Below, in pieces: positions 131-62,680 of a DNA stretch of 64,000 nt. The notes under the pieces are model-generated. The model saw only the letters and a list, made by a program, of their open reading frames with translations. It was not told where the DNA came from and ran no database searches. How positions within the stretch are numbered: the stretch's first letter is position 1; each line of letters begins with the position of its first letter. The DNA lies in NCBI GenBank assembly GCA_964648295.1, contig CAZYNH010000002.1, forward strand, positions 259,075 to 323,074, given 5' to 3'. A program made the translations under genes and the position numbers. The stretch comes from an uncultured Bacteroidia bacterium. GTDB lineage: Bacteria > UBA4055.

Positions 131-137
131 ATTCGGT

Positions 138-1489: not shown

Positions 1490-1855
1490 GTGCAAGAAAT
1501 ACTAGACAAATTGGAAAAAATGACGGCAATGGAGCTGTCAGAGCTTGTAAAAGCTATCGAGGAAAAATTCGGAGTTACCGCTGCAGCGCCTACAATGGTC
1601 GCCGGAGCCGGAGCCGTAGCAGAAGAGGCTAAAGAAGAAGAAAAAACTGATTTTGACGTTATTCTTCTCTCTTCAGGAGACAAAAAGATCCAGGTTATAA
1701 AAGTGATCAGAGAGATGACCGGACTTGGCCTGAAAGAAGCAAAAGCTCTTGTTGATGAATGCCCGAGCACAGTAAAAGAAGCTGTTCCCAAAGACGAAGC
1801 GTTAAAAATGAAAGCTCAGATCGAGGAAGCAGGCGGACAGGCGGACCTTAAATAG
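1490..1855 (+). CDS. rplL: 50S ribosomal protein L7/L12 (GTG start)
   Basis: [30 protein letters not shown] motifs; GGAGG SD. Confidence 0.98.
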
Positions 1856-1877
1856 GCTTTGAAAAATAATCTTTCCG

Positions 1878-1914
1878 GAAAAAGTTATTCCTGAGCTGTA
1901 GGAATAGCTTTTTC
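1878..1914 (+). terminator. Intrinsic terminator-like hairpin after rplL
   Basis: GAAAAAGTTATTCCT-gagctgt-AGGAATAGCTTTTTC inverted repeat. Confidence 0.7.
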
Positions 1915-1996
1915 TGTCCTATTTGAATATTCGCAGTTAATGTCAGTTTCGTACGGGATAATATTATAAAATCGAGCGTAAGATGTTCATTAAATC

Positions 1997-2038
1997 AAAA
2001 ACCTAAACATAACGGAAAAGCGTATGTTGGGTTTTTTT
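1997..2038 (+). terminator. Terminator/attenuator-like hairpin with U7 tract in the rpoB leader
   Basis: AAAAACCTAAACATAACG-gaaaag-CGTATGTTGGGTTTTTTT, 56 nt before the rpoB start. Confidence 0.55.
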
Positions 2039-2094
2039 ATTTTATTTATACGCTGAAGTCCTTAGAACAAAAACAGTAAACGGGAGGACTAAAC

Positions 2095-5000: not shown

Positions 5001-6054
5001 GGATCTCGCGCTTCTGGAAAACGAAAGGTCTGCGGAACTTTACGCTCTTCTGAAAGACAAAAGCATACTTTCGGATGTGGTCTGCCTTCAGAAAGAAAAA
5101 GGAACAAGGGTCGTAGTACTTAGCAAAGGGGAAAAAATAACCCAGAAAGCGTTCATGAAGCTTAACATAGAGGACTCTAATATCGCTACAGACTGGACGG
5201 ATGACGATCTTATCAACGAAAAGATCAGCGAGATAATCAACAACTACTCGATGATTGTGGATCAACTTAATGTAGACTATCAGAGAGACAGACAGAGACT
5301 TCTTTACGGAGATGAACTTCCGCCGGGAATTATTCAGCTCGTGAAAGTCTATATTGCCAAGAAAAGAAAGATCCAGATCGGTGACAAAATGGCGGGAAGG
5401 CACGGGAACAAAGGTATCGTTTCAAGGATAGTTCCTATTGAGGATCTTCCATATCTTGAGGACGGTACTCCTGTCGATATAATTTTAAACCCGCTCGGTG
5501 TTCCTTCAAGGATGAACCCCGGACAGATATTCGAGACAAATCTCGGCTGGGCAGGAAAGACTCTCGGGGAAAAATATTCGACCCCGGTATTTGACGGAGC
5601 GTTCATTGAGGACGTGAAAGGTAAACTTAAGGAAGCGCACCTGCCTCTTTCCGGTAAATCTGTCCTATATGACGGCCTGACCGGAGAAAAATTCGCGCAG
5701 GAGATCACTGTAGGGGTTACTTATATGCTCAAACTGTCGCATCTGGTCGAGGACAAGCTTCACGCAAGATCAATCGGACCGTATTCCCTTATCACCCAGC
5801 AGCCTCTCGGCGGAAAAGCCCAGTTCGGAGGACAGAGGTTCGGTGAGATGGAGGTATGGGCTCTTGAAGCATACGGAGCGGTTCATATACTGCAGGAGAT
5901 GCTGACTTATAAATCAGATGATGTCAACGGAAGAACTAAAGTCTACGAAGCCATTGTTAAAGGTCTTGAAATACCCAAACCGGGAATACCGGAGGCCTTC
6001 AATGTTCTTATCAAGGAGCTTTACGGCTTGAATCTTGATGTTAAGCTGGAATGA
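2095..6054 (+). CDS. rpoB: RNA polymerase beta subunit (TTG start)
   Basis: [67 protein letters not shown]; GGAGG SD. Confidence 0.99.
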
Positions 6055-6106
6055 TCTAATGTAACTTTAATTTATGATCGGCATGTATTAAAAACAGGAG
6101 TCAGGA

Positions 6107-9100: not shown

Positions 9101-10798
9101 GAAGGCAAGATAATCTGCGAGGCCGGAACGCTGGTGGACAGACCCATTGCAAAAAATATTGTCAACCATAATATCGAGAAAGTCAAGATAAGATCGGTTC
9201 TCACTTGCGAATCCAAAAAAGGTATCTGCGCAAAATGTTACGGTCAGAATCTGACAACCAGAAAACTCGTCTCTGTCGGTGAAGCCGTGGGGATTATGGC
9301 AGCTCAGTCTATCGGAGAGCCGGGAACGCAGCTGACGCTCAGGACATTCCATGTTGGAGGTTCCGCCGATATCGCCACGATCAAATCAGAAGAGTTCGCC
9401 AAGTATGACGGAACGATAGATCTTGTCGATGTTGATACCGTGACATACGATAAAGCGCGCGTTGTCATAAGAAGGAACGGAGTTCTGAGACTGATAGATG
9501 ATTTCGGAAAGGAAGTAATGTCGGAAAACATACCGTATTCCGCCACAATAATGGTAAAGGACAAAGAAAGGGTTACCAAAGGACAGCTTCTGTACAAGTG
9601 GGATCCGTACAGCTATGTGATCCTGTCGCACAAGAATGGAAAAGTGAAATTCAAAGACATCGTCGAGGGCAGCACATTCAAAACATCTTTTGATGAAAAG
9701 ATAGGTCAGAAATACAAAGTGATGATAGAACCCAAGGAAAGAACTCTTAAACCTACAATCTACATAGTTGACAAGGACGGTAATGAGATCGCAAAATACC
9801 TCCCGCCTTCAGGAGGAGCTCTCCAGGTCGAGGACGGCGACAAAGTAAAAGCCGGACAGGTTCTGATAAAGATGCAGAGAAGCCAGGGAAAAACAAAAGA
9901 TATCACCGGAGGTCTGCCCAGGGTCAGCGAACTTTTTGAAGCCAGGGATCCCAAAGACCCGGCCATACTTTCTGAAATTGACGGTGTGGTAAAATACGGC
10001 GATTTCAAGGGTACCTCACAGATAATCATGGTCGAGGACCTGAACGGAAATGAGGTAAGGACTTACAGCGTTCCCCGCGGAAAGCATATTCTTGTCCATG
10101 ACGGCGATATAATATATGCCGGAGAAAAATTGACCGAAGGATCGATAAAACCTGACGACATCCTGCATATTCTCGGAACGACAAGGGTTCAGCACTTCCT
10201 TGTTAACCAGATACAGGAGGTTTACAGAGGCTCAGGCGTGAATCCGAACGATAAGCACATCGAGGTAATCGTAAGGCAGATGCTCCAGAAAGTACAGATC
10301 GTAAATCCGGGGGATACTTCTTTCCTCGAAGGCGATAAAGTAAGTAAATTCGTCCTCTCAAAGAACAACTCGGATATTTACGATAAGGTCATTGTAACAG
10401 ATCCCGGAGATTCAAAGTTCGAGGAAGGAGAGATGCTCATTACTTATGAAGCAGACAACAGGAACAAGAAACTTACAGAAGAAGGCAAGAGCCTGATCAA
10501 ATTCAGGCCCGCAAGACCCGCGACATACAAGCCTCTGCTTCTGGGTATAACCGAAGCCGCTCTGCAGGTTGATTCATTTATATCTGCCGCTTCATTCCAG
10601 GAAACGACGAAAGTGCTTACTGATGCCGCCATCAAGTCTTCGACAGACTATCTTGAAGGGTTGAAAGAAAATGTGATCATGGGTAACCTGCTGCCGTGCG
10701 GAACAGGGCTCGCAAAATACAATTACCTCAAAGTAAGCAATAAATTCGAGGAAGAAGAAGAAGAGGAAGAACCGGAAAGAATCAGTTACAGAGATTAA
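6107..10798 (+). CDS. rpoC: RNA polymerase beta-prime subunit
   Basis: Zn ribbon CSC..CDKC, catalytic [34 protein letters not shown]; large extra N-terminal insertion. Confidence 0.99.
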
Positions 10799-10881: not shown

Positions 10882-10957
10882 GCCTTCTTAGCTCAGTCGG
10901 TAGAGCAAAGGACTGAAAATCCTTGTGTCCGTGGTTCAATTCCGCGAGGAGGCACCA
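10882..10957 (+). tRNA. tRNA-Phe(GAA) with encoded CCA
   Basis: 76-nt cloverleaf: GCCTTCT/AGGAGGC acceptor stem, D arm TAGCTCAGTCGGTAGAGC, anticodon arm AAGGA-CTGAAAA-TCCTT, T loop GGTTCAATTCC. Confidence 0.97.
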
Positions 10958-10958
10958 G

Positions 10959-10998
10959 AAGATAAAAGGCTTTGAGAGATCAAAGCCTTTATCTTTTA
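10959..10998 (+). terminator. Intrinsic terminator after tRNA-Phe
   Basis: AAGATAAAAGGCTTTGA-gaga-TCAAAGCCTTTATCTTTT. Confidence 0.8.
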
Positions 10999-11021
10999 TA
11001 AAAAAAAGCTGGAGCAATGAC

Positions 11022-13706
11022 ATGAATGTTCACAATCTGGACTGTATTTTCAAACCTCAAAGAATAGCTCTTGTGGGTGTTTCTTCAAATCCCAACAGCG
11101 TCAGCGGTAAGGTACTCACGAACATAGTTTCCGCCGGTTTCAAAGGAGTAGTCTATCCTGTCAATCCTGACTACGAGGCTGTAATGGCAATGACCTGCTT
11201 TCCGGACATTAAAAGCCTTCCGAGAAAGCCGGACCTCGCTGTCATCTGCACGGCGGCCGGAGAAGTTCCGGGCCGTATAAGGGAATGCGGAGAAGCTAAG
11301 ATCAGCGGAGTGATAATAATGTCGTCAGGTTTTAAAGAGACCGGCGGCGAGGGAATAAAGCTCGAGGAAGAGATACTTGCAGAGAAAGCTAAATACCCTG
11401 ATATGAGAATAATAGGGCCGAACTGCTTAGGCATAATCGTTCCGGGACTTGACCTGAATGTCAGTTTCGCGCCGGACATTCCCAGAAAAGGCAGTATCGC
11501 CTTTATATCGCAGTCCGGCGCTCTGTGCACATCCGTGCTCGACTGGGCGAACGATGAAAAGATCGGTTTTTCCAGCTTTGTATCGATCGGTAATACCATT
11601 GATGTGGACTACGGTCACCTGATCGATTATTTCGGCGAGGATGAGAATACCAGATCGATAATACTCTATGTTGAATCTATAACCGACGCGCGGAAATTCA
11701 TGACGGCCGCGAGAGCTTTCGCAAGAACCAAGCCGATAATCGTTTATAAGGCCGGAAGATTCCCGGAATCAGCTGCCGTGGCAGCGTCCCACACGGGCGC
11801 CCTTGCGTCAGAGGACAGCGTTTACGATGCCGCTTTCAGGAGGACCGGACTTGCCAGGGTCTATGACATAGGAGAGATCTTCGACTGTACCGAGCTGATA
11901 GCGAGGAACAAGATACCAAAAGGGGCAAGGCTCGGCATCGTAACAAATGCCGGCGGGCCCGGAGTAATGGCCGCGGACGCGCTGATCGCTTCAAAAGGTA
12001 AGCTCGCAAAACTCAGTGATGAGACAATTGCCCTGCTTAACGAGAATCTCCCGCCGGCATGGTCGCACGGGAACCCCGTGGACGTGCTTGGGGACGCAAG
12101 GTCTAAGAGGATAGCTAAAGCCGTCAAGATAGTTCTTGACGATAAGAATGTGGATGCGGTTCTGGTAATACTCACACCTCAGGCAATGACGAACGCGGAT
12201 GCCACCGCAAAGGCTATAGGCGAACTTTCAGCCGAAACCAGAAAACCGGTACTTGCGTCATGGCTGGGCGGAAAGAGCATGAAAGACGGACTGAAGATAC
12301 TGAACGATCACGGCGTCGCCGCATACAAAACCCCTGAACAGGCTGTCAGGGCATTCATGACGCTCGTAAAATACGCAAGGAATCTTGAGACGCTTTACGA
12401 AACGCCAAAAGATATTCCGGTCGAATTCTCGCTGAACAGAAAAAAGATCAGGGATGAATTCAGGTCCATAATCAGGAACAATGTGACCGTTCTTTCGGAA
12501 GAGAACTCAAAGAAACTTCTTGCTGCATACGATATTAATGTTACCGTCCCGTTCCCCGCGGCAACGGCTGAAGAGGCAGTTTTGATCTCAAAGCAAATAG
12601 GATTCCCTGTCGTCTTCAAGATAAATTCTCCGGATATTACCCATAAGACCGATGTCGGCGGGGTGATTATCGATATAAATTCGGCTGAGACAGCGTTACT
12701 TTCTTTTAACAGGATAATGGAGAACGCGAAAAAAGCGGTGCATGAAGCAGGGCTAACAGGTATCACGGTGCAGAAGATGATAAAAATGAAAGATTCGGCC
12801 GAAGTGATCCTAGGCATAAAGAAAGACAGGATATTCGGAACTGTGATCCTTGTCGGCGCGGGAGGTGTTACGGCAGAGCTTTTCGGAGACATGTCATTGG
12901 GATTCCCGCCGCTTAACGAAAGGCTGGCCAGGGAAATGCTCCAGAATCTCAAGATATGGCCGCTTCTCAAAGGGTACAGGGGCAAGCAGCCTGTAAATAT
13001 TGATATGCTGATAGAAGTGATGATCAGGCTTTCCTACCTGGCCGCTGACTATCCCGAAATAACAGAACTTGACATAAATCCGCTGCTCGTAGGAGCTGAA
13101 GGTGTTTACGCTCTTGACGCGAGGGTTGTCGTTGATTTGGATTCTGCCGGAAAACATACGGAAAGGTATTCTCATCTGGCATTAAAGCCCTACCCGGAAG
13201 AGTATGTGAAGAAAGGCATTTCCCTTGACGGATGTGATGTAACTTTAAGACCCATAAAACCTGAGGACGAGCCTTTGTGGCTTGAGCTTCTGGGAAGCTG
13301 TTCAAGAGAATCTATCTATTCAAGGTTCAGATATTTTTTCCAGTGGTCTTCGCACGATGTTGCCACAAGGTACTGTTATATTGATTATGACAGGGAGATA
13401 GCTATTGTAGCGGAGATCGTTGAGGACGGGAAAAGAAAGCTGATCGGTGTCGGCAGGCTGATATCCGATCCTGAAAAGAACACTGTTGAATACGCTATAC
13501 TCATAACGGACAAATGGCAGAACAGGGACCTCGGAGGGATACTTACGGATTACTGCATCGATATAGCTCATAAATGGGGCATGAAGAAAATTTATGCCCA
13601 GACGACGACCGACAACCACAGAATGATAGCTCTTTTCAGAAAAAGAGGATTTAAAATTCTTGAAAAAGACGGCGACAATACTATAGAGGTGGAAAAAGAG
13701 TTCTGA
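11022..13706 (+). CDS. NDP-forming acyl-CoA synthetase-like / C-terminal GNAT fusion (Pat/PatZ-type protein acetyltransferase architecture)
   Basis: CoA-binding N-terminus, GPNCLG, SQSGAL, AASHTGALA, NPVDVLGDA, ATP-grasp HKTDVGGV and ELDINPL, C-terminal GNAT (GVGRL). Start moved to ATG 11022 (GGAG SD) because the track start lies inside the tRNA. Confidence 0.88.
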   Translation: MNVHNLDCIFKPQRIALVGVSSNPNSVSGKVLTNIVSAGFKGVVYPVNPDYEAVMAMTCFPDIKSLPRKPDLAVICTAAGEVPGRIRECGEAKISGVIIMSSGFKETGGEGIKLEEEILAEKAKYPDMRIIGPNCLGIIVPGLDLNVSFAPDIPRKGSIAFISQSGALCTSVLDWANDEKIGFSSFVSIGNTIDVDYGHLIDYFGEDENTRSIILYVESITDARKFMTAARAFARTKPIIVYKAGRFPESAAVAASHTGALASEDSVYDAAFRRTGLARVYDIGEIFDCTELIARNKIPKGARLGIVTNAGGPGVMAADALIASKGKLAKLSDETIALLNENLPPAWSHGNPVDVLGDARSKRIAKAVKIVLDDKNVDAVLVILTPQAMTNADATAKAIGELSAETRKPVLASWLGGKSMKDGLKILNDHGVAAYKTPEQAVRAFMTLVKYARNLETLYETPKDIPVEFSLNRKKIRDEFRSIIRNNVTVLSEENSKKLLAAYDINVTVPFPAATAEEAVLISKQIGFPVVFKINSPDITHKTDVGGVIIDINSAETALLSFNRIMENAKKAVHEAGLTGITVQKMIKMKDSAEVILGIKKDRIFGTVILVGAGGVTAELFGDMSLGFPPLNERLAREMLQNLKIWPLLKGYRGKQPVNIDMLIEVMIRLSYLAADYPEITELDINPLLVGAEGVYALDARVVVDLDSAGKHTERYSHLALKPYPEEYVKKGISLDGCDVTLRPIKPEDEPLWLELLGSCSRESIYSRFRYFFQWSSHDVATRYCYIDYDREIAIVAEIVEDGKRKLIGVGRLISDPEKNTVEYAILITDKWQNRDLGGILTDYCIDIAHKWGMKKIYAQTTTDNHRMIALFRKRGFKILEKDGDNTIEVEKEF

Positions 13707-48965: not shown

Positions 48966-49247
48966 TTATTTGTACAGGCAGATGTACGACGAGTCTTTAG
49001 CCACTTTTACTTTAAATCTTATATTCGGGTCGATTATCATTGTTTCATTAGGTCCGTAATTCTTCCATTCGCTATCCCCGGGAAGCATAATGGCGATATG
49101 CCCGCTCGTGACTGTTAAGAATTCCTTTGACGAAGTTCCGAATTCATACTCGCCCGCAGCCATAACTCCTACCGTAGCCGGGCACTCGCCCGTCTCGAAT
49201 GCTATTGATTTGACCCTGCCTTCAAAATACTCGTTAACTTTGAACAT
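48966..49247 (-). CDS. ppnP: Pyrimidine/purine nucleoside phosphorylase (YaiE/DUF1255 cupin)
   Basis: KVNEYFEGRVKSIAF, ATVGVM..GEYEFGT, CLY. Confidence 0.9.
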   Translation of the reverse strand: MFKVNEYFEGRVKSIAFETGECPATVGVMAAGEYEFGTSSKEFLTVTSGHIAIMLPGDSEWKNYGPNETMIIDPNIRFKVKVAKDSSYICLYK

Positions 49248-49248
49248 A

Positions 49249-49452
49249 TTAACCTCCGCTCATTAAATGTATTACGCTGATATCAGCTCCGTCAGGTACG
49301 GGAAAAGTATCCCATGCCTCTCTCTTAACGATCTTACCGTTAACTTTTATGACCAGCATCCTGAAAGTATAGTTCATGACGGTCAGGACATCCCTGACCG
49401 TCATTCCCTCATTCCATTCCACCGTATTTCCGTTAACGGTTATCTCGCTCAT
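49249..49452 (-). CDS. ThiS/MoaD-family sulfur carrier
   Basis: 67 aa ending in GG, VNG motifs; immediately after the AOR gene. Confidence 0.88.
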   Translation of the reverse strand: MSEITVNGNTVEWNEGMTVRDVLTVMNYTFRMLVIKVNGKIVKREAWDTFPVPDGADISVIHLMSGG

Positions 49453-49453
49453 A

Positions 49454-51613
49454 TTACTGATGCTTTGAAAGTATTTCAATAACTTCAGGAAGGTCCATTC
49501 CGAGTTTTTTCATATGATCGATCTTCGGAACACCGTTCTTAGTCCAGCCTCTTCTCTCATAAACCGCGTCAAGAAGGTGTTCGTACCTGTTTTCTCTATA
49601 CTTTCTGGTGATCGCTATCTTTTCTTCAACGGATTTTCCTGCGGGATCGACACCGATCTCTTCACTCATCTTTTTGTCGTAGAAAGCTTCTTTGCTTTTA
49701 TACTCTTCAGCAGTTACCGGACCGGCTGCCCTGTAGGGCTGCGCGTCGTGCTCTCTTAATCCATATCCTCTTCTGATGTTGAAAGTCCTCTGGAAATTAT
49801 AAACTCTTTCGGACTGACGGATCAGTTCGTGCTTGTCAATTTTGCTTCCCGTTACTGCGTTAAAGATCGTAACATAATTATCGAGATGCTCCGGCACTTT
49901 TGCGGGTTCGTCAGTTTCAGCGTTACCTTCCGGCTCGACATCATTCCAAGGCAGTTTACAAAGTCCGTTCAGGCCGAACCATGTTCTGAACATAGGGAAA
50001 TAGTGAAGCGCTTCGGCTTTGTTTTCGAAAGTGGGGATGTGATTATTTACCATGTCCATGAAGATCAGCCATGCCTCATCGTGCTGTGGACCCTTGTTTG
50101 TCATCGCATATCCTCCCTGCTGAGCGAGCGATTCTTTTGAAACATACTGAGAATATTCGAGGCCCTTATTTTCCATTCCGATATCGTTCATAAAATTCAT
50201 ATCCGCCCCGTAGTTCTCGGCGAAATATTTTTTCATTCCCCGCACACCGAGACCTACTATTTTTCCGAACCCTTCGCCTCTGGCCATCTGGTGTATAAGC
50301 TCGAATGCGGCATCAATATTTCCGAATTTCAGATCGATCCCGCCTGTATTTTCTTTAGTGATCAATCCGTTCTCGTAACACTCCATTGCAAAGGCCATCA
50401 TGGTACCGAATGATATGGTATCAATTCCGTACGTGTCGCAGTAGAAGTTAAGCTCGATTATGGCGTCGGGATCGAATATCCCCATATTGGATCCTACTCC
50501 GGCGGCGGTTTCGTATTCGGGCCCGTCAACAGTTACCTTCTGTCCTATATAGGGTCCGGTCTTCAGTTCAAAATTATCAACACCTTTACAGCAGTTCATC
50601 GTACAACCTATCCAGCATCCGTCGTTCATTCCCTGTGTAAATTTACTGTTCCATACTCTCGAATGAATATTGTCAGCGTCCTTGTGGGAACCGAATTTGA
50701 AGTTGTGGGTCGGCAGAAGGTCGTAATCGTTCATGATGTTGACCAGGTGTGCAGTTCCCTCCTGCTTCATTCTGCACTGGTGTGGGTCGAGTTCCTTCAT
50801 CTCTTTTGCGAAACGCGCTCCTCGCTCTTTTATAGGTTCCATATCGGCTACATGGTTCGGGTCCTGAGAAATGCCGGCTGATTTTATAACGACGGCTTTG
50901 ATTTTTTTATCTCTGAAAACAGTTCCGATACCGCCCCTCCCTGCCTGCTTTAACCTGCAGAGTTTTCTTTTTATGTCGTACCAGCTGAAATTCAGCATGC
51001 CGATCATGGTATGCTCAGCCGCGTGACCTGCAGATATGACAGAAATGTTCTTCATATCTCTCGGATCTGCGCTTTCGGAGTACATCTCTGTAAGCTGTTC
51101 GGCCAGAATGTGGCTGTCGATCTCTTCAGCGGGAGCTTCTTCTATCGTGATAGTATTTTTCACACCGTCTATAACTATGATCACATCATTTTTCGCTTTT
51201 CCCTGTATCTCCAGAGCATCGAAACCTGAGAATTTCAGGAACGGCCCGAAATATCCTCCGACATTACTGTCTATAACAATGTCTGTTATAGGCGAAATCG
51301 CGACAACAAGAGATTTCCCCGCACCTGCATACTGGGTTATACCGCATATCGGGCCGGTGGCGATGATGATCTCATTGTCGTTATCGTTCCATTTCGTGTC
51401 GGGTCTTGTTCCGTCCCACAGAAGTCTCAATCCGTAGCCTTTTCCTCCGATAAATTTCTCTTTCATCCGCGCGGGGACAGGTTTGATCTTTACATCGCTG
51501 CTGTCAAGGTTGATATACAGGGTCCTGTCAGTGTAGCCTCTGTAAAGTTCTTTCGGCTCGTAGTGCATCTCTTTGAGCGTTGTGTGCTTCGACTTCAAGT
51601 CTTTTACATCCAT
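49454..51613 (-). CDS. Tungstopterin aldehyde:ferredoxin oxidoreductase family protein
   Basis: FIGGKGYG, DSNVGGYFG, GFDALEI, AGRGGIG, C..C..NC, DGPEYET, CDTYGIDTIS, GLCK, Y..RGW..NGVP. Confidence 0.92.
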   Translation of the reverse strand: MDVKDLKSKHTTLKEMHYEPKELYRGYTDRTLYINLDSSDVKIKPVPARMKEKFIGGKGYGLRLLWDGTRPDTKWNDNDNEIIIATGPICGITQYAGAGKSLVVAISPITDIVIDSNVGGYFGPFLKFSGFDALEIQGKAKNDVIIVIDGVKNTITIEEAPAEEIDSHILAEQLTEMYSESADPRDMKNISVISAGHAAEHTMIGMLNFSWYDIKRKLCRLKQAGRGGIGTVFRDKKIKAVVIKSAGISQDPNHVADMEPIKERGARFAKEMKELDPHQCRMKQEGTAHLVNIMNDYDLLPTHNFKFGSHKDADNIHSRVWNSKFTQGMNDGCWIGCTMNCCKGVDNFELKTGPYIGQKVTVDGPEYETAAGVGSNMGIFDPDAIIELNFYCDTYGIDTISFGTMMAFAMECYENGLITKENTGGIDLKFGNIDAAFELIHQMARGEGFGKIVGLGVRGMKKYFAENYGADMNFMNDIGMENKGLEYSQYVSKESLAQQGGYAMTNKGPQHDEAWLIFMDMVNNHIPTFENKAEALHYFPMFRTWFGLNGLCKLPWNDVEPEGNAETDEPAKVPEHLDNYVTIFNAVTGSKIDKHELIRQSERVYNFQRTFNIRRGYGLREHDAQPYRAAGPVTAEEYKSKEAFYDKKMSEEIGVDPAGKSVEEKIAITRKYRENRYEHLLDAVYERRGWTKNGVPKIDHMKKLGMDLPEVIEILSKHQ

Positions 51614-51785
51614 TTTCTTCTCCGTGTTTTATTATTAATAGTCAATATTTCAATTCTTTTCCGATCCGGATCCATAAGATAATGATTCCGGACATATATT
51701 TCAAGAAATTTAATTACACAAAAAAATCGCTTGTTTTTACCGGCCCGATTCTTTATATTTGAGACCTTATTTAATCAGGGCAGAT

Positions 51786-52265
51786 ATGATGAATAAGATG
51801 AGTTTCTCTATCGCGGTGTTCATTCTAATAGCACTTTACGGCTGTGTGTCCGTTCCGTCAATGTACAGGAAAAGCCCTGAAAGCGTAACTGATCTTTTTG
51901 AACCTAAGATCGAAGTTGAAGACCTGAGGTTTTATACCGCAGGTCAGAATGGTCTCGAGAAAAAAAACAGGGTTTACAACAATGTTTTCAGGGAAGGATC
52001 GGTTAGCTGGATGTGGTACGAACTGACAGTCAGGAACCTGTCAGATTCTGACACAAAACTTCTCTTTAGAGAGATGTGGACAGACGAAAATAATGCCGTG
52101 CTGAGCTCGATAAAAAAAGAAATGAGCGTCAGAAAAAAGGATGTTTATCTTGAATACAGTGCCGGGATAAGCGCGGAATGGAAACCGGGCTATTATGTCC
52201 TCAAACTGTATCAGGACAGCCTGAAGATAGCTGAGAAAGAATTTAAAATAACCAAAATAAAATAA
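51786..52265 (+). CDS. Hypothetical lipoprotein
   Basis: LYGC lipobox, beta-rich domain ending WKPGYYVLKLY. Confidence 0.65.
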   Translation: MMNKMSFSIAVFILIALYGCVSVPSMYRKSPESVTDLFEPKIEVEDLRFYTAGQNGLEKKNRVYNNVFREGSVSWMWYELTVRNLSDSDTKLLFREMWTDENNAVLSSIKKEMSVRKKDVYLEYSAGISAEWKPGYYVLKLYQDSLKIAEKEFKITKIK

Positions 52266-52282
52266 AACGCTGGGAGTAACAG

Positions 52283-52468
52283 ATGGCAAAAAAACAAGTT
52301 TACGGTCTTAAAGCGACAAGAGGACTCTGTCCGGTTTGCGGAGAGCAGATCCAGATCGTAAAGATAGTAAAACCCTTTTTGAGCGAGGCTAAAACGCACA
52401 AATTCTCTGAAGAAGTCGTTAAGGCATGCAAATGCCCTAATAAAACTCTGGATTCTTATCTCAAATAA
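52283..52468 (+). CDS. 61-aa basic Zn-ribbon protein resembling DUF4295 / ribosomal protein bL38
   Basis: MAKKQV..L, CPVC, VKIVK, F.EEVV, CKC; GGAG SD and a terminator directly after. Confidence 0.55.
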   Translation: MAKKQVYGLKATRGLCPVCGEQIQIVKIVKPFLSEAKTHKFSEEVVKACKCPNKTLDSYLK

Positions 52469-52491
52469 AGCGTCATAACGACGCTTTTTTT
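52467..52491 (+). terminator. Intrinsic terminator
   Basis: AAAGCGTC-ataac-GACGCTTTTTTT. Confidence 0.8.
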
Positions 52492-52520: not shown

Positions 52521-53909
52521 ATGGCATTAACAGTTCACGAAATATGGAAAACCTATAAAGAAAAGCTAGGGTCAGAGATAGAAATATCGGGCTGGGTAAG
52601 AACTGAAAGGACCTCAAAGAATTTCGGCTTCATCGAATTGAACGACGGGACTTTTTTTAAAAACATACAGGTCGTCTATGATGATACCCTGCCGAATTTT
52701 AATGAAGTTACAAAGGTCACAACAGGTTCTTCACTTAAAGTCAGAGGAAGGCTGATTGAGTCTCCCGGGGATAAGCAGCCGTTCGAGATAAAAGCGGACG
52801 GTATTGAGATCATCGGTATGTGCGAAGCTGATTTCCCGCTTCAGAAGAAGAGGCATACTGCCGAATACTTAAGGACTATTGCTCACCTCAGGCCCAGAAC
52901 CAACCTTTACAGGGCTGTGTTCAAGGTCAGAAGCCTTGTTGCTTTCGCGATCCATAAGTTCTTTACCGACAAGAATTTCGTTTATGTTCATACTCCTATC
53001 ATAACCGGCAGCGACTGCGAGGGTGCCGGAGAGATGTTCCAGGTGTCAACACTTGATATGAACAACCTGCCAAGAACAGAAGACGGCGGAATCGATTATT
53101 CGAAAGATTTTTTCGGCAAGCAGACGAATCTGACGGTAAGCGGGCAATTAGCCGTTGAGAACTTCTGCATGGCCTTCAGGAATGTTTACACATTCGGGCC
53201 GACTTTCAGAGCTGAAAGGTCTAACACGCAGAGACATGCGTCCGAATTCTGGATGATAGAGCCTGAAATGGCTTTTGCCGACCTGAACGACAATATGGAT
53301 GTATCGGAAGAAATGGTCAAGTATCTGATCCGTTATGTGCTGGAGAACGCTCCGGAAGAGATGGAATTCTTCAACCAGTGGGTGGACAAAGGGCTTTTGG
53401 AAAGGCTCGGCTTTGTACTGAACTCCGATTTCGGAAGAGTGACATATACACAGGCGATGGATGAACTCATGAAGTCCGGAAAGCAGTTCGATTATAAGCC
53501 TGAATGGGGAATAGACCTCCAGACCGAACATGAGAGGTATCTTACTGAAGAAGTATACAAAAGACCGGTATTCGTAACTGATTATCCGAAGAAAATAAAG
53601 GCGTTCTACATGCGCCTGAACGACGACAAAAAAACAGTGGCCGCCATGGACCTTCTCGTTCCCGGAGTCGGCGAGATAATCGGCGGAAGCCAGAGAGAGG
53701 AAAGGCACCAGGTACTTCTTGACCGGATCGGGGAAATGGGTTTGAAAAAAGAGGATTACTGTTGGTATCTCGACTTGAGAAGGTTCGGTACAAATAAACA
53801 CTGCGGATTCGGTCTTGGATTTGAAAGAATGGTGATGTATCTTACAGGAGTAGAGAATATAAGGGATGTCATACCTTTCCCGAGAACACCAAAAAACGCT
53901 GAATTTTAA
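52521..53909 (+). CDS. asnS: Asparagine--tRNA ligase
   Basis: [61 protein letters not shown]. Confidence 0.97.
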
Positions 53910-55460: not shown

Positions 55461-57260
55461 ATGATGTCAGGAAGCATGAAAAATATTCTAATATCTCTCG
55501 TTGTATTTTACGGCGTTCTAAATGCGCAAAAAGCCGTTAAGATGAGCTCATCTGCTACAGATATCTTCAAAAACGATGTTTTTGAGCTGGAGATAAGGCT
55601 CGAAAATTTTAATTCTGATGTTTCTGTTCAGTATCCTTCATTCAATGATCTTCAAAAAATATCAGGCCCGTTCCAGTCGTCAAGTACTTCGATAATCAAC
55701 GGAACGATGACAAAATCTGTAACCCTGACTTATCAGTTCGCTCCAAAAAGAACGGGAAAGATAACAATAGATCCCGTTTCGGTCACCGACGAAGGTAAGG
55801 TATACAAGTCCGACCCCCTGACTGTTAATGTCTTTGAACAGGGTTCTGCGGCCAACAATTCAAGAGATATGTTCATAGTTGCGGAAATAAGCTCGAAAAA
55901 TGTCTTTGTAGGCGAGATGGTAAGGCTGGATCTAGTTCTCTATATAAAACCGGAGATCAGGCTAAGTGCCCCATCTGTTAAAACTGAGCCGAAATTTACC
56001 GGATTCGTAAAGGAAAATATAGAAATTCCTCAGGAAAAACTCAGAACTCTTGTTCAGACGATTTATAAAGGCACAAAATACAACACGCTGCCTTTAAGAA
56101 GTTACTGGCTGACGCCGACTTCATCCGGGGAAAAGGTTATTGAATCCGTGAGCGTCAATGTTCCTGTAGAAGTCAGAACTAAGAAAAAGAACAGGGGATT
56201 CTTCAACGATCCCTTCTTCGATGATGATGTTTTTTCAGGATTCAGCAGTTATCAGGATAAAACCGTACTTTCAGACGAGTTGAACCTGACAGTCACAAGC
56301 CTGCCTGAGCAGGGAAAACCTTCTGATTTTTCCGGTGCGGTAGGAACTTTCAGCATAATGTCTTCATTGGACAGGGATTCGGTTTCTGTCAACGAGGGCG
56401 TTAGTCTGAAAATCGTTATCTCAGGAACAGGCAATTTATCCGATATACGAGATCTCAATCTCAAATTCCCAAGAGATTTCGAGGTTTACGATCCTAAAAG
56501 GACGGTTTCATTAAACCAAGATAACAAAAAGAACGGAAAAATTACATTTGAGTATCTTCTTCTTGCAAGGAATCCGGGAAAACACGCCCTTAAAGATATT
56601 TCTTTCCCTTATTTTGATCTAAAGGAGAAAAAATACAGATCGGTCAGGACCAAAGACCATCTGGTAACTGTGTCAGGTGAAGGTAAGGCTTTTGCGGCTT
56701 CAAGAGCAGGCGGATTTTCAAGGCGGGATGTTGAAGTTCTGGCCAGCGATATAAGGTATATCAAAAAGGACCGGCCCGATTTCTATAAAATAGAATCAAA
56801 ATATTTTAACCCCGCAGAATTCTTTGCGAGATCAGGTGTCTCAATTTTTATTATAATCCTTTCCCTGTTCGTAAGAGTTTATATTTCAAAAAACTCGGGC
56901 AACGAAGCCCTGTCAAGACGGAAGAAAGCCGCGGCCAACGCGATCAGAAGGCTGAAAGAATCTTATAAGGTACTCGGTTATAAAGATTATCTGAAATTCT
57001 ATAAAACGCTTGATGAAGCCCTATTAAAATTCATTGCCGACAAACTGAATATAAGCCACGCGGGCATAGTGACAGATGAGATAGTGCCTGTGTTAAAAAA
57101 TTTGTCTGTTCCGGATGACATAATATCGGATTTTACAGGGCTTCTTAATAAATCCGCATCAATTCAATACGCAGCGAGCAAGCCCGGAGAAGATGAAATG
57201 GCTAAAGATATTGAAAAAGCGAAAGAGCTTATGAGCGAACTTATTGTGAGGTTAAAATGA
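55461..57260 (+). CDS. batD: BatD-family (oxygen tolerance) protein
   Basis: Signal peptide, Ig-like repeats (GPFQSSSTSIING, GKITI, GAVGTF, ISGTGNL, DFEVYDP), DIRYIK then TM. Confidence 0.82.
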   Translation: MMSGSMKNILISLVVFYGVLNAQKAVKMSSSATDIFKNDVFELEIRLENFNSDVSVQYPSFNDLQKISGPFQSSSTSIINGTMTKSVTLTYQFAPKRTGKITIDPVSVTDEGKVYKSDPLTVNVFEQGSAANNSRDMFIVAEISSKNVFVGEMVRLDLVLYIKPEIRLSAPSVKTEPKFTGFVKENIEIPQEKLRTLVQTIYKGTKYNTLPLRSYWLTPTSSGEKVIESVSVNVPVEVRTKKKNRGFFNDPFFDDDVFSGFSSYQDKTVLSDELNLTVTSLPEQGKPSDFSGAVGTFSIMSSLDRDSVSVNEGVSLKIVISGTGNLSDIRDLNLKFPRDFEVYDPKRTVSLNQDNKKNGKITFEYLLLARNPGKHALKDISFPYFDLKEKKYRSVRTKDHLVTVSGEGKAFAASRAGGFSRRDVEVLASDIRYIKKDRPDFYKIESKYFNPAEFFARSGVSIFIIILSLFVRVYISKNSGNEALSRRKKAAANAIRRLKESYKVLGYKDYLKFYKTLDEALLKFIADKLNISHAGIVTDEIVPVLKNLSVPDDIISDFTGLLNKSASIQYAASKPGEDEMAKDIEKAKELMSELIVRLK

Positions 57261-58018
57261 AGATCCGCCCGGCTCTAATAGCGACAGTTATGGCCTTATA
57301 CCTGCAGGTTCTTACAAGCGCTCCCCAGACGGATTTCGATGAGGCGAATTCATATTACGAAAAAGGAGACTACGAAAATTCGTGCAGGCTTTACGAAAAA
57401 ATTCTTTCTGACGGTTATGAGAACGGCAAGCTGTATTACAATCTGGGAAATTCTTATTATAAGACCGGGGATATAGTCAGGGCTATATTAAATTATGAAA
57501 GAGCATTAAAATTAATTCCGGCGGACACCGATCTTTTAGAGAATTTAAAGACAGCGAGACTTTCTCTGGCTGACAAGATAAATGATGAGACCGTTGTGCC
57601 TTTTTTTACTTTCTATAATGATCTCAGGAATCACCTCAACATTTATACCGCGAAGAATTATTTTTATTTCTCAGTATTCGCCTTTTCGATCATATTTTCT
57701 CTTTTCATTCTGTCCAGATCAGCATTATTTAAGAAAAGTTTTGCTGTTTTAGGCATGATATCCGCTGTAATATCAGTTCTGACAGCTTATACATACTACG
57801 ATATTTATACGCAGAATTCGGAAAGGCACGGCATTGTTGCTGACGATAAGATATCTGTGCTTTCTTCACCAGATGAGAATATAAACTCGAAAGAGCTTTT
57901 CTACCTTCACAGAGGAACGAAAGCGAAGATTACAAGATCGAACGATCAATGGCTGGAGATAGAGATCGACAGCGAAAAGAAAGGCTGGGTCAGAAAAGAG
58001 GCTGTGATCGAGATATAA
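57257..58018 (+). CDS. batE: BatE-family TPR + TM + SH3 protein
   Basis: FDEANSYY, LYYNLGNSYYK.G...AILNYERAL, LH.GTK, W.EI....GWV. Confidence 0.85.
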   Translation: MKIRPALIATVMALYLQVLTSAPQTDFDEANSYYEKGDYENSCRLYEKILSDGYENGKLYYNLGNSYYKTGDIVRAILNYERALKLIPADTDLLENLKTARLSLADKINDETVVPFFTFYNDLRNHLNIYTAKNYFYFSVFAFSIIFSLFILSRSALFKKSFAVLGMISAVISVLTAYTYYDIYTQNSERHGIVADDKISVLSSPDENINSKELFYLHRGTKAKITRSNDQWLEIEIDSEKKGWVRKEAVIEI

Positions 58019-58078: not shown

Positions 58079-61000
58079 TTATTTTAAGGGTCTTTCAGTT
58101 TCCAACTTTATCGTATTATCTTTCGTGGCATTCTTCGATACAATATAGTAGAATTTTTTTGTCGCGGAATATTCAACAGAATACTGACTTGTTGTCACAT
58201 TAGCCTCGAATGTGAAAGTGCCGTTCGGGTCCGAAGACGAATAGACATCGTAGTTTGTGGCATCGGCCGAGTCGTCCCAGTCTATCACAATATTACTTCC
58301 CGCCATGCTTGTAACAATATTGGATGGAATTCCGGGGATGACAGAGGCAGAAATTTCGACTTCCTCTGCATTCGAAGGCCCTGATTCCGTAACAGGGTCG
58401 GTGTAAGTTGCTGTCACATAGTAGCTGTAACTGCCGTTAGAAAGCCCGTTGTCATTGTATGTCAGGGTCGCAGGATTTGCTATCGTAGCTATTGAACTTC
58501 CGTTCCTGTAAACCTTGTAACCGCTCAGGTTCGCTCTTGTCGTTCTCGGCTGTGACTCGAGGTCAGCCTTTGGAGGTTCTTTTCCGCGGTAAACCGATCT
58601 TCCGTAAACGCGGTTATCTTCGACTTCCTCGAAATCCTGACTAAATACAGGTTCGCCCTTTGCGTTATTGACGCTGATATCGTCTATAGCCAGAACGAAA
58701 GAATCGTTGGACACACATGTTATAGCCAGATATACGGTCTGTCCGGCATAGGCTGAAAGATCGTAACTGTACTGGGCCCATGATGCTGTTGATTCAACAT
58801 AGCTTCCGGCAGAGATTATTGTAAAATCGCCCTGAGCAGTCCCGGTAGTTGAAATTCCGACTTTGAATCTGTCTGCGCCCCAGTCCATTTTTATTGATTT
58901 TGCGTAAAAACTGAAGCTGTACCCGCTTCCGAGCAGAAGCTGGGGAGTGATCAGCCAGTCGTTATTCGGCGCAGAGGCTGCAAGAACAGCGAAACAGGCA
59001 GCGTATTTACTTCCTGTACGGGGAGCCCATGCTCCGGTCAGCGCGGGAGTTGTCTGGGACGGGTTGAATATAATATAAGATCCGATATAGCTTTCGTTAG
59101 TAAAATCAGCGTCGGTACTTCCGTATGCCGTACCGCCGTCGCCGTCTATCTGAGTCCAGTTGGCGAATGTGAGAGCGAAGTCTGAGTATTCCTCGAAGCT
59201 GTCAGCGAATGTATCAGGCTCTTCAAAATCCGGCGCTTCCCAGCTCAATGACACATTGGCTCCGTTAGCAACTGCAGCGAGTTCTTTGGGAGGATCAGGA
59301 AGTACAGGCGCCGATTCGGTTTTGAATGTCATATTGGAGCCGTAAGAGGTACCTTCGCTGTTAACTGCTTTGATCCTGTAGTTGTATGTTGTGTTCTCAG
59401 AAAGTCCGGTCAGGTTCGCGCTTACTGCAGTGTTGCTTGTGCCGGTCACTGTACCCGGTACGGCCGCCACCGAACTGCCGTAGGATGTTGTAAGCCCGTA
59501 CTCGAATGTGACTGTCGTTGAGTATCCGTTGGCGTTCACAGTGCCGTTCAGGACGGCTTCTTCTACGGATACAGAATTTGCGGCTTGTGTCGATACTACC
59601 GGGGGATAGGAAACTGTTTCAGTGGTTATCGAAATATTATCGATGTCCCAGTAATAGCCCCATGTGCCTGTATAGTTCCACTTGAATTTTACCTGAGGCT
59701 GATTAGCTACCGCAGCGATCACCTGGCTGAAGGATGCGGGATTAGCGCTCGTGGCCGACCATGACTGTATCACCGTCCAGTTAGTGCCGCCGTTGATACT
59801 GTATGAAAGCGTAGCCGATGAGCCGGTGTAGGACCTGAAATAGTGCGAAAAAGCCAGTGTAATATTAGTAGCGCCTGTCATATCGATCAAGGGAGTTACA
59901 AGATCAGCGTTCTGGCTGTTCCCGCTTCCATATGCGTCACTGTTAAGATATGCGTAATTTCCGTCGGCACCTGAGAGACCGCTCGTATGGGTACCGAACT
60001 GCCATACCTGCCCGTTGCCCTGATTGTCAACGATCTTCCATCCTGCCGGAAGTGTTGTTCCCGCGTTAAAGTTTTCGTATAGCGGCAGAGACATAGCCGC
60101 TTCAACGACAGACACGGTCCATGTGGCAGAATACGAACCGGGTCCGTAGGTATTATTCGCCAGAACCTTCCAGTAGTAAGTTCCGTAATTTAAGTTCGCT
60201 GATGGAGTGTATGTACTGGATGTCGGGTTCTGGTTAATTTCTGGCGAGCTGAAATCTGAATTATTATCTACCAGTATGGTATACGATGTTGCCCCGGAAA
60301 CATCATTCCAGTCAAATGTTGGTGTCATATCCCCCGTTGAGCTTCCGTTGGACGGGCTTGCAAGCGTCGGCGTCCCGGGCGCCGCTCCGATGTTTACTGT
60401 CCACGCCGATGAATATGAGCTTGAACCGTATGAGTTGGTTGCTAGAACTCTCCAGTAATATGTCCCGTATGCAAGGTTGGACGACGGAGTATAAGTTATG
60501 GCGGCGACTGTCTGATTTACCTCCGGCGATGAAAAATTTGAGTTGTTGTCGACCTGAATTGTATAAGAAGTACCGCCTACATTGCTCCATTCGAAAGTCG
60601 GGGTCTGATCTGTGGTGCCTCCGCTGTTGGACGGGCTCAAAAGAGTTGGTGTCGGTGGCGGTGTAGTTCCTGTCGATACCGTTATATCAAGAAATTTCGT
60701 TTCTGTGTTGAATCCGGTAACTGTAAGTTTTGCAGCATCCGCTACAAGTGATTGAGATATTGTAACATTTCCGGATGCGTCGGTGAATCCTGCATAGGTG
60801 TTGCCGTTCTGATAAAGTGATACAAGCGCATTCTGGAAGTTGGATCCGGCCGCTTTAATATTCGTAGTAAATGGAACACCTACGGTTACAGATGTGTTGG
60901 AAACTGTAAGTAACTTCGGCGGATCTGTTCTTAACTGAAGCGATACATCCCCGAAAATTATCCAGGCTTCCTGTGTGTCTTTAGTCGCGGCATCCGTCGG

Positions 61001-62680
61001 GGCTTCCTGGAGCATAAGATTAGACGCATTGCAGCAAACAGTTCCCACTGTCGTTCTCTGTTCTGTTACATTTATTCCGTCGCCCGGCTGCGATGAATAA
61101 TCATAGCCGCCTTTTATGATATCGTTATAGTAATCCTGGGCTTTCATCGGAGGCAGCCATGGCTGGCTTATTGAAGAGAACCATCCTCCAACTGCACCGC
61201 CGTTCGTTTTTCTCAGCCACGATTCCGCGAAACATGGTTTTGACGCATATTCGACATTACCCACAAGGCAGGCAACTGATACTACAAAAGGAAGCATATC
61301 GCCGTTCGTAAGAGTAGCCACGTCAGTGTCATAAAGATAACCGCCGTAAATTGATTGAAAGCAGTCATAACTTCCGTGTCCTGTATAGTTTATGATCGAT
61401 CTTCCGTTGTTTACATATCCAAGTATTGTCGCTTTTGTGACATTGTTAGCCTGGTATGCCGTGCTGACAGAAGCATAAGTAAACGGTAGTTGTTTGTAGT
61501 TTATAATGATATCCGAATGGGCCTGGTCTCCTTCACCGTCATCACCTGATCCGGCTCCCTCGTTTGAGGCTATGCCAAGGCCTTTTTCGTACCATGTTCC
61601 GCTTGGAGTAGGATTCTTTTCATAATTGATAGCTTTGTTTATCTGGTTAGTCAGTTCAGCTTCTGAAGAAACAGAGAATCTGCCAACTAAAACATCAATA
61701 TACTGGTCCGATCCTACTGTGCATCCGAGCATCGGGTCCTGAGCTCCGGTCGTGGATGTAACACTGTTAAGTACCTGAGATTTCAGGTTCGGGAAATCTC
61801 CGACTATCTGGGCATAAAGGATGTTAGTATTCAGCAGGTACTGGTTTTTTATATCCTGCGTTACATACAAGTCCGTTCCGTTGGGTTTTTCAAGTGTATG
61901 AACGGTAAAACCCTTCTGTCTTTTCCAGTCTATCCATGGCTGAATTGCGGCTAATCCTCCGTTATTTGGAGTATAGATAACAAGTATTTCACCGTGTCCG
62001 CCTATTGGAAGGGCTTTGGTTTCATTATAATTCAGGAAGATGCTTTTATACATACCGCTCATTTCAGGAAAAACCTGTTTCGGTTTTACAGTCACAGGAT
62101 TGACCGGTTCACTGTCATTTTCGATAAGCGATATTCTAAGATTTTTATAAATCCTGAGCGTTTTTGATGCGAAATTATACTGATAAGGGTAAACGATAAT
62201 GTTCGTCCCTCTTACATCTCTCATAATAAAAGGGTCAGTTATCTCCGCAATCTTTCCGGGGTACCATTCATTTTTTACAGATCCGTCGGCGATTCTGTAG
62301 GGTATCTCGTCAATTTTCTGGCTTCTTGAGATTATTCCTCTTGAAGGAAGGAGCGGATATTTCAGTTCGATGTCTTCGTAACCGTCGAAAGAATATTTCA
62401 TTTCGACATTCCTGTCTTCCTTAAGCTGTACCGCTGTTGCGTGATACGGAATCTCGGCGTATCCTTCATCTACAGTAAAAACGCTCCCGGCACCTTTAAT
62501 CACGCTGTAACTGATTCCGCCTTTCTCTACTGTCGTAACGATGAAATCCGCTACATTAAAATCAAGGAGCATTTCAGAATCTGATAACCTGCTGTATTCA
62601 ACAGTAAAACCTCTCCCGGTTTTTGAGAAAACCGTTACGGCAATTATTAAAAGCGCCGCAACAAAAAAACACTTCTTCAT
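58079..62680 (-). CDS. Secreted C25 (gingipain-family) cysteine peptidase with propeptide, Fn3-like and cleaved-adhesin domains
   Basis: Signal peptide; propeptide RDVRG..YP.QY; VGRFS; catalytic INYTGHG and VSVACLVG; FAESWL; GDVSL; two adhesin-like domains (W..DN, NDWLITP). Confidence 0.9.
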   Translation of the reverse strand: MKKCFFVAALLIIAVTVFSKTGRGFTVEYSRLSDSEMLLDFNVADFIVTTVEKGGISYSVIKGAGSVFTVDEGYAEIPYHATAVQLKEDRNVEMKYSFDGYEDIELKYPLLPSRGIISRSQKIDEIPYRIADGSVKNEWYPGKIAEITDPFIMRDVRGTNIIVYPYQYNFASKTLRIYKNLRISLIENDSEPVNPVTVKPKQVFPEMSGMYKSIFLNYNETKALPIGGHGEILVIYTPNNGGLAAIQPWIDWKRQKGFTVHTLEKPNGTDLYVTQDIKNQYLLNTNILYAQIVGDFPNLKSQVLNSVTSTTGAQDPMLGCTVGSDQYIDVLVGRFSVSSEAELTNQINKAINYEKNPTPSGTWYEKGLGIASNEGAGSGDDGEGDQAHSDIIINYKQLPFTYASVSTAYQANNVTKATILGYVNNGRSIINYTGHGSYDCFQSIYGGYLYDTDVATLTNGDMLPFVVSVACLVGNVEYASKPCFAESWLRKTNGGAVGGWFSSISQPWLPPMKAQDYYNDIIKGGYDYSSQPGDGINVTEQRTTVGTVCCNASNLMLQEAPTDAATKDTQEAWIIFGDVSLQLRTDPPKLLTVSNTSVTVGVPFTTNIKAAGSNFQNALVSLYQNGNTYAGFTDASGNVTISQSLVADAAKLTVTGFNTETKFLDITVSTGTTPPPTPTLLSPSNSGGTTDQTPTFEWSNVGGTSYTIQVDNNSNFSSPEVNQTVAAITYTPSSNLAYGTYYWRVLATNSYGSSSYSSAWTVNIGAAPGTPTLASPSNGSSTGDMTPTFDWNDVSGATSYTILVDNNSDFSSPEINQNPTSSTYTPSANLNYGTYYWKVLANNTYGPGSYSATWTVSVVEAAMSLPLYENFNAGTTLPAGWKIVDNQGNGQVWQFGTHTSGLSGADGNYAYLNSDAYGSGNSQNADLVTPLIDMTGATNITLAFSHYFRSYTGSSATLSYSINGGTNWTVIQSWSATSANPASFSQVIAAVANQPQVKFKWNYTGTWGYYWDIDNISITTETVSYPPVVSTQAANSVSVEEAVLNGTVNANGYSTTVTFEYGLTTSYGSSVAAVPGTVTGTSNTAVSANLTGLSENTTYNYRIKAVNSEGTSYGSNMTFKTESAPVLPDPPKELAAVANGANVSLSWEAPDFEEPDTFADSFEEYSDFALTFANWTQIDGDGGTAYGSTDADFTNESYIGSYIIFNPSQTTPALTGAWAPRTGSKYAACFAVLAASAPNNDWLITPQLLLGSGYSFSFYAKSIKMDWGADRFKVGISTTGTAQGDFTIISAGSYVESTASWAQYSYDLSAYAGQTVYLAITCVSNDSFVLAIDDISVNNAKGEPVFSQDFEEVEDNRVYGRSVYRGKEPPKADLESQPRTTRANLSGYKVYRNGSSIATIANPATLTYNDNGLSNGSYSYYVTATYTDPVTESGPSNAEEVEISASVIPGIPSNIVTSMAGSNIVIDWDDSADATNYDVYSSSDPNGTFTFEANVTTSQYSVEYSATKKFYYIVSKNATKDNTIKLETERPLK
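60105..60663 (-). repeat. Two tandem ~95-aa Fn3-like repeats inside the C25 gene (boundaries approximate)
   Basis: PTLLSPSN..TDQTPTFEW..TSYTIQVDNNSNFSSPE..YGTYYWRV vs PTLASPSN..DMTPTFDW..TSYTILVDNNSDFSSPE..YGTYYWKV. Confidence 0.85.

Follow-up and report, generated by a model that had tools for sequence, protein, structure and literature searches.

The small gene that lies ahead of asnS in the window (the whole stretch of 64,000 nucleotides analysed here) encodes, with a probability of roughly two in three as judged from sequence comparison, a ribosomal homologue of bL38 (DUF4295, rpmL) that carries four cysteines (Cys4) and probably binds Zn(II). The homology of the Cys4 family to bL38, taken for itself, is very probable on the evidence of profile alignment, Pfam scoring and decoy searches, while the ribosomal role and the nature of the metal site are suggested by analogy and by a structural model. 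The open reading frame is a real, conserved gene, and the possibility that it is not a gene at all is ruled out by its conservation. The features of the window are collected in Table 1.

Table 1. Coordinates of the Cys4 gene, of its signals and neighbours, and of other features of the window
Feature	Position	Strand	Basis
CDS, 61-aa basic Cys4 protein, candidate C+ form of bL38	52283..52468	+	ORF, translation, family conservation
Shine-Dalgarno-like GGGAG, 6 nt 5' of ATG	52272..52276	+	direct sequence reading
First cysteine knuckle, C16-P-V-C19, followed by G20	52328..52339	+	C16 and C19 invariant (113 members)
Second cysteine knuckle, C49-K-C51	52427..52435	+	C49 and C51 invariant, K50 at least 90% conserved (113 members)
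Intrinsic-terminator-like hairpin with U-tract, overlapping the stop codon	52467..52491	+	RNA fold; separates the Cys4 gene from asnS
168-aa ORF, lipoprotein-like N-terminus (…LIALYGC…), no Pfam family; possibly co-transcribed	51759..52265	+	Pfam search, homology
asnS, class II aminoacyl-tRNA synthetase	52521..53909	+	Pfam tRNA-synt_2 (3.9e-70) and anticodon OB fold
Aldehyde:ferredoxin oxidoreductase	49454..51613	-	
ThiS-family protein	49249..49479	-	
Ppnp nucleoside phosphorylase	48966..49247	-	
rplA, rplJ, rplL, rpoB, rpoC	206..10798	+	Pfam
73-aa ORF overlapping rplA, without Pfam match	97..318		
927-aa fusion protein directly after rpoC (CoA_binding, Succ_CoA_lig, ATP-grasp_5, C-terminal GNAT)	10923..13706	+	
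BatD-like protein	55461..57260		
TPR protein	57257..58018		
1,533-aa Peptidase_C25 (gingipain-like) with propeptide, cleaved-adhesin, MAM-like and Ig-like domains	58079..62680	-	

The gene, its signals and its family

The translation of the reading frame is exactly that quoted in the initial annotation, and the description given there of a small basic protein with a Shine-Dalgarno sequence and a terminator has been borne out, the product having a pI of 9.48, with 12 Lys and Arg against 5 Asp and Glu. The start codon follows the stop of the upstream ORF (52265) after 17 nt, and at the 3' end an 8-bp hairpin, AAAGCGUC/GACGCUUU (52467..52487), runs into a 7-U tract ending at 52491. In the folding of the segment 52460..52505 the hairpin reached -10.7 kcal/mol (z = -3.8), with none of 200 shuffles as stable; a consensus terminator scan reported no terminator at the Cys4 gene, probably because the stem takes up part of the U-run. 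The codon adaptation index of 0.77, for which rplA/J/L and rpoB/C served as the reference, placed the gene 20th of 29, and its codon usage is unremarkable and uninformative.

The relatives of the protein have been collected by searches of increasing depth. A word-indexed search returned 15 clusters at 62-100% identity, among which the only named ones were metagenome-assembled genomes (MAGs) of Candidatus Delongbacteria, and the cluster of the 61-aa protein itself includes a Delongbacteria MAG protein; the window, too, belongs to a genome of Candidatus Delongbacteria. An exhaustive single-sequence phmmer search against 1.8 billion representatives gave five matches only, with the first distant relatives, P0016-P0018, being proteins 63-66 aa in length that share the layout; a further match, P0019, was rejected as an unrelated repeat protein. 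The family profile search extended the set to 655 proteins at E<=0.1, the named ones coming from Zixibacteria, from organisms entered as 'Bacteroidetes/Bacteroidota bacterium' and from other MAGs, and all annotated relatives carry hypothetical or spurious automatic names. A scan in which each GTDB species was represented by a single genome revealed at least 468 genomic matches, the best 80 of which belong overwhelmingly to MAGs of Ignavibacteria/Ignavibacteriota; some few of the MAGs with a match bear the names Chitinophagales, Chlorobiaceae or Planctomycetaceae, and these labels are suspected to be imprecise, because the loci in question share the Ignavibacteria synteny. The Cys4 form is found in Ignavibacteria, Zixibacteria and Delongbacteria.

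Among 113 diverse members, the only invariant columns are K10 and the four cysteines C16, C19, C49 and C51, within the family consensus MAK.QSFADK..K....CPVCG...Q..K.V.......WKF....V.VCKCNEK..Y, and the Delongbacteria clade forms a distinct 'CKCP' branch. The MAG isolate SMAG_U15333 has one copy of the Cys4 gene on each of two contigs (loci L034 and L082), one of them cut by a contig end; this duplicate could be a true paralogue or a product of assembly or binning.

Relation to bL38

The ribosomal protein bL38 was discovered in 2020, and its critical part in the incorporation of uL6 was demonstrated in 2025, with the question of which clades rely on it left to clarify (PMC11851116). The domain DUF4295 has been placed in Bacteroidia and Rhodothermia only, and in Flavobacterium johnsoniae bL38 adds its strands to the beta-sheet of the uL6 C-terminal domain near the 23S rRNA helices H95 and H97 (PMC7797042, PMC11851116). 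In Bacteroidia and Rhodothermia, a four-residue insertion in loop 11 of uL6 goes along with the presence of bL38. The reference sequences for the present comparison were taken from solved ribosomes, namely chain 4 of 7JIL (F. johnsoniae) and chain 15 of 9I5T (Porphyromonas gingivalis).

The alignment of the protein's own clade (A1) was compared by hhalign with a bL38 alignment that included the two solved chains (A4), as one pre-specified comparison, which gave a probability of 72% and P = E = 3.3e-5. The two alignments match end to end, in 49 columns over positions 1-62 and 1-49, with 29% identity, and only two gaps open in bL38, one opposite LCPVCG (residues 15-20) and the other opposite KACKC (residues 47-51); the ends are aligned as well, by MAKK.V..L at the N-terminus and by.D.[FY]LK at the C-terminus. 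Thus the similarity to a DUF4295/bL38 profile, which the initial annotation had read by eye as the bL38 pattern with CPVC and CKC added, has been found at the level of the clade profile, whereas broad family profiles set against the narrow bL38 alignment reached a probability of only 16-17% (P = 0.0015). The 61-aa protein alone does not match DUF4295 (PF14128, gathering cut-off 27 bits) even at E<=10, and its single-sequence scans against Pfam and NCBIfam returned only zinc-knuckle noise below threshold.

Direct passage of the Pfam threshold is offered by another member, P0227, with the full layout of the Cys4 family (CPVCG...CKC), which scored 31.4 bits against DUF4295 at the cut-off of 27 (E = 1.7e-7), being itself 41% identical to the 61-aa protein (E = 8e-13) and matching the family profile at E = 1.7e-13. 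At E<=1, DUF4295 is matched in 9 of the 113 members, from at least four subclades, with P0227 the only one above the gathering threshold and P0204 (8.2e-5), P0016 (3.4e-3), P0214 (0.02) and P0011 (0.16) among the others; these five share one register, at profile positions of about 12-42, corresponding to the stretch that the two knuckles enclose. Across the 113 members, DUF4295 was the sole Pfam family passed and the sole one matched outside the cysteine knuckles, most members showing only generic zinc-knuckle models below threshold.

The same relation was seen in searches against decoys. The HMM of Flavobacteriia bL38 was run on 12,862 sequences, consisting of 120 Cys4 members with 2,400 shuffled versions of their sequences and of 10,342 small ORFs; the first five ranks all went to Cys4 members, as did 18 of the top 30 places, with a median rank of 29 for the 23 members of the Delongbacteria type and rank 40 for the 61-aa protein. 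In the reverse direction, with the Cys4 HMM run on about 12,900 sequences, P. gingivalis bL38 came out on top. The real Cys4 sequences lie far above their composition-matched shuffles (Mann-Whitney P = 4e-34, with related sequences counted as independent), and the shuffled-decoy contrast and the P-value of the single hhalign comparison are more reliable than the enrichment statistics.

The Cys4 protein would be something else if it were a generic small zinc-knuckle protein of non-ribosomal function, with its bL38 likeness owed to chance or to the convergence of short beta-hairpins, as the shortness of the aligned core (about 25-49 columns), the low probabilities of the broad profiles and the prevalence of sub-threshold generic zinc-knuckle matches would allow; the Foldseek searches described below brought no support for bL38 either, by a method near powerless for this fold. 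This explanation is nevertheless improbable, as it is opposed by the agreement of independent tests on one register (the Pfam match of P0227 and the full-length clade alignment), by the distance between the real sequences and their own shuffles, their non-independence being kept in mind, and by the position of the gaps exactly at the knuckles, with both ends of the proteins aligned beyond them.

Searches of the PDB with the protein and with the profiles A1 and A3 retrieved no bL38 and nothing significant, their results being dominated by the CxxC knuckles of LysW, Nop10, eL34, RNA polymerase and rubredoxin. A rubredoxin-like Fe(Cys)4 mini-protein for electron transfer in an anaerobe was considered for this reason, as CPVCG resembles the rubredoxin knuckles, with weak PDB matches at E of about 0.3-1.5, and as the setting appears anaerobic, with an aldehyde:ferredoxin oxidoreductase gene nearby. 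However, these matches do not reach beyond the 8-residue knuckle, the second site has the form CxC rather than CPxCG, the aromatic core pattern of rubredoxins is lacking, the protein is strongly basic and has an N-terminal tail similar to those of ribosomal proteins, and the Cys4 gene has no conserved neighbour that codes for a redox partner. Rubredoxin identity has been rejected, the similarity being limited to one knuckle, and as an explanation it is extremely improbable.

As compared with Bacteroidia bL38, the Cys4 protein shows the same succession of a MAKK.V..L tail, a hairpin with [IV]K.VK ... F.E..[VIM] and a helix with.D.[FY]LK, the hairpin being followed by the helix in the predictions for both, and has a similar size and charge (pI 9.5 versus 10.1 for bL38). 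It differs in the additional segments LCPVCG and KACKC with the four invariant cysteines, in its length of 61 aa versus 50, in the placement of its gene, which is not downstream of rpmB-rpmG, and in its hosts, which belong to Delongbacteria, Zixibacteria and the class Ignavibacteria. A tblastn search, which covered the 64-kb window, found no canonical bL38, and the uL6 gene is not located in the window.

The precedent for divergent forms outside Bacteroidia is the bL38 of Borreliella burgdorferi (bb0162, PDB 8FMW), which occupies the equivalent ribosomal site and has been accepted as bL38 from cryo-EM, despite its very low identity to Flavobacterium bL38, and which is, like the Cys4 protein, small, basic, initiated by MAK, encoded outside a ribosomal protein operon and formerly unannotated (PMC10618245). 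Unlike the Cys4 protein, it has a single cysteine, an extra beta3 strand and the helix on the opposite face. The Borrelia protein gave no signal with the HMM of Flavobacterium bL38 (rank 642), with the Cys4 HMM (rank 3,550) or in the PDB profile search; the distance from Flavobacterium bL38 is therefore much smaller for the Cys4 family than for the Borrelia protein, which is invisible to both HMMs. As a separate observation, the tblastn query given as 'Fjo bL38' in Supplementary Note 4 of PMC10618245 is a sequence other than the DUF4295 protein in chain 4 of 7JIL, and slight differences from the deposited chain are present in the Fjo line of the alignment in that paper as well; the mismatched query may partly explain why no homologue was found by search there.

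Predicted fold and cysteine site

The AlphaFold2 model of the Cys4 protein, which was built from an alignment of 42 sequences, consists of two strands (residues 22-33 and 39-49) and a helix (53-60), with the moderate confidence of a mean pLDDT of 70.7 and a pTM of 0.35. In the control model of a genuine bL38, the strands lie at residues 17-24 and 31-38 and the helix at 40-48, so that the two models contain equal elements in equal order, coincident in the hhalign register. The structural comparison with bL38 proposed in the initial annotation agrees element by element at the level of predicted secondary structure. Foldseek of the Cys4 model against the PDB listed no bL38 among the top 50 and nothing significant. 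This result is uninformative rather than negative, because in the control search the genuine bL38 model recovered 7JIL chain 4 at rank 1 with an E-value of only 6e-3 (at 97% identity and 0.9 A rmsd); the 59%-identical P. gingivalis chain followed at E = 0.04, while the Borrelia chain was missing from the results.

In the model, C16 and C19 stand just before the first predicted strand and C49 and C51 at the end of the second; the two pairs lie opposite each other where the hairpin is open, and the four residues could, as read from the secondary structure, form one tetrahedral site there. The presence of a bound metal, and its identity as zinc, are suggested by this arrangement. The protein has four conserved cysteines of the ligand type in two knuckles and both of these segments are absent from bL38, as expected of a C+ form. 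The term Zn-ribbon, under which the initial annotation had placed it, proved loose, as the classical zinc ribbon with two CxxC knuckles and a three-stranded beta-sheet is not what was found: the second knuckle is CxC, the modelled fold is a two-stranded hairpin with a helix, and the Pfam matches to Zn-ribbon models are all below threshold. The model would be described more accurately as a Cys4 metal-clamped hairpin.

Zinc-binding (C+) and zinc-free (C-) forms are known for the ribosomal proteins bL31, bL33, bL36, bL32, bL28, uS14 and bS18. The Cys4 protein and bL38 resemble these classic cases in that, within one family of tiny basic proteins, a conserved Cys4 site of structural, non-catalytic character is present in one form and missing from the other. 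In the classic cases, however, the cysteines are mostly substituted and the two forms often coexist as Zur-regulated paralogues, whereas in bL38 the knuckles appear to have been deleted as whole segments and the forms appear to be lineage-specific, with no C+/C- paralogue pair of bL38 and no link to Zur seen here.

On the analogy with F. johnsoniae bL38, the protein would carry a basic, probably disordered N-terminal tail (MAKKQVYGLKATRG), followed by a beta-hairpin of about residues 22-49 with its open end clamped through the tetrahedral metal site of C16/C19 and C49/C51, and by a short C-terminal helix (residues 53-60). In the uL6 C-terminal domain, the beta-sheet would be continued by this hairpin next to H95, the sarcin-ricin loop, and H97 of the 23S rRNA, and the Cys4 protein, if it binds the ribosome and uL6 in the way that this analogy suggests, would stabilise uL6 and help to load it during the assembly of the 50S subunit.

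Genomic context, evolution and meaning

The gene order in the window runs from the aldehyde:ferredoxin oxidoreductase gene on the opposite strand through the 168-aa ORF, the Cys4 gene and its terminator to asnS and to genes for a glyoxalase-family protein and a cNMP-binding protein. The aldehyde:ferredoxin oxidoreductase gene overlaps the ThiS-family gene by 26 nt, an arrangement that also occurs in locus L106, and its cluster with the ThiS and Ppnp genes (48966..51613) points to an anaerobic lifestyle. Elsewhere in the window, about 41 kb separate the Cys4 gene from the cluster of genes for ribosomal proteins and RNA polymerase on its upstream side; the fusion protein that follows this cluster combines the domains of an ADP-forming acyl-CoA synthetase with an acetyltransferase, in an architecture like that of the protein-lysine acetyltransferase Pat, and the BatD-like and TPR genes are located upstream of the Peptidase_C25 gene.

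The order of the Cys4 gene and asnS has been kept in the divergent Delongbacteria L093/L094, with asnS products 72% identical, and the 168-aa ORF is homologous (E = 9e-8) to a 147-aa ORF that stands ahead of a GGDEF gene, the Cys4 gene and asnS in the Delongbacteria genome L093, which suggests that, of these Delongbacteria, one line has lost the GGDEF gene or the other has gained it. Neither rpmB, rpmG, ftsY nor any other ribosomal protein gene was found beside the Cys4 gene in about 105 related loci of the ten lineages examined, nor does the gene take the position after rpmB-rpmG that marks bL38 operons, in the window or in the related loci. The setting outside rpmB-rpmG-ftsY that had been noted from the window was, therefore, borne out in the relatives, while the neighbour that these conserve upstream could not be seen from the window.

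This neighbour is a gene for a GAF/GGDEF protein. Of the 89 related loci in which an upstream neighbour was scored, 82 have it directly ahead of the Cys4 gene and in the same orientation. The protein is usually a GAF-GGDEF protein of about 645 aa, the gap usually measures 20-35 nt and the downstream gene varies, and the linkage is kept across Ignavibacteria even where the GGDEF proteins have diverged to 40% identity. In three more deep lineages (P0227/P0204, P0214 and the Delongbacteria L093), a GAF-only or GGDEF-only gene takes the place at gaps of 0-29 nt; altogether, GAF and/or GGDEF genes stand upstream, at gaps of 0-35 nt, in the loci L005-L092, L093/L094, L009/L010, L095-L097, L100/L101 and L104, with the Cys4 gene at about position 5001 or 6001 in most of them. 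To judge from these comparisons, the GAF/GGDEF gene and the Cys4 gene look like a conserved two-gene unit.

Accordingly, the Cys4 protein may be thought of as a partner or effector of the signalling protein (e.g., a c-di-GMP-related adaptor) that shares its ancestry with bL38 and is not a structural ribosomal protein, a reading for which the tight and persistent linkage speaks, together with the lack of any ribosomal protein context in the whole Cys4 family. Such a role is unlikely, though, in view of the lineage of the window, the Zixibacteria and the P0016/P0163 lineages, where the Cys4 gene has kept all four cysteines and no GAF or GGDEF neighbour is present; the function of the protein is, therefore, independent of such a partner. 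Moreover, the GGDEF proteins of Delongbacteria and Ignavibacteria are only 25% identical, which is generic domain similarity, and the sequence similarity of the Cys4 protein itself points to a protein of known ribosomal function. Genes of ribosomal proteins are, besides, often embedded in conserved non-ribosomal operons, such as rpsU-dnaG-rpoD and yceD-rpmF. The ribosomal reading is placed ahead of the signalling one owing to this precedent and to the persistence of the gene without GAF/GGDEF.

With the ribosomal reading accepted, the bL38 of Bacteroidia would be a cysteine-free derivative, from which both knuckles were deleted (6 and 5 residues). The cysteine-free form is taken as the derived one because the Cys4 form occurs in Ignavibacteria and other FCB phyla while DUF4295 has been reported only from Bacteroidia and Rhodothermia; the direction from C+ to C- is proposed solely from this phyletic parsimony. 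A wider scenario, in which bL38 is an old ribosomal protein of the FCB group with an ancestral Cys4 zinc site, the Bacteroidia form lost its knuckles and moved into the rpmB-rpmG operon, and the pair of GAF/GGDEF and rpmL(C+) is a regulatory link from second-messenger or sensory signalling to uL6 loading in 50S assembly, is a long shot as a whole.

A cysteine-bearing or zinc-binding bL38 is not mentioned in the texts of the bL38 papers found, and if Rhodothermus bL38 already carries the four cysteines, the novelty would be smaller. To judge from its sequence, the Cys4 protein most probably represents bL38 in a variant that binds metal. If the Cys4 family is bL38, the range of the latter would grow by at least 468 species, from Ignavibacteria, Zixibacteria, Delongbacteria and related lineages, and proteins that are now called hypothetical or are misnamed would gain an identity. 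In that case, bL38 would also join the ribosomal proteins with zinc-bound and zinc-free forms, giving a clean example of the transition from C+ to C- by the deletion of whole knuckles, and would provide testable candidates for the ribosome structures of under-studied phyla.
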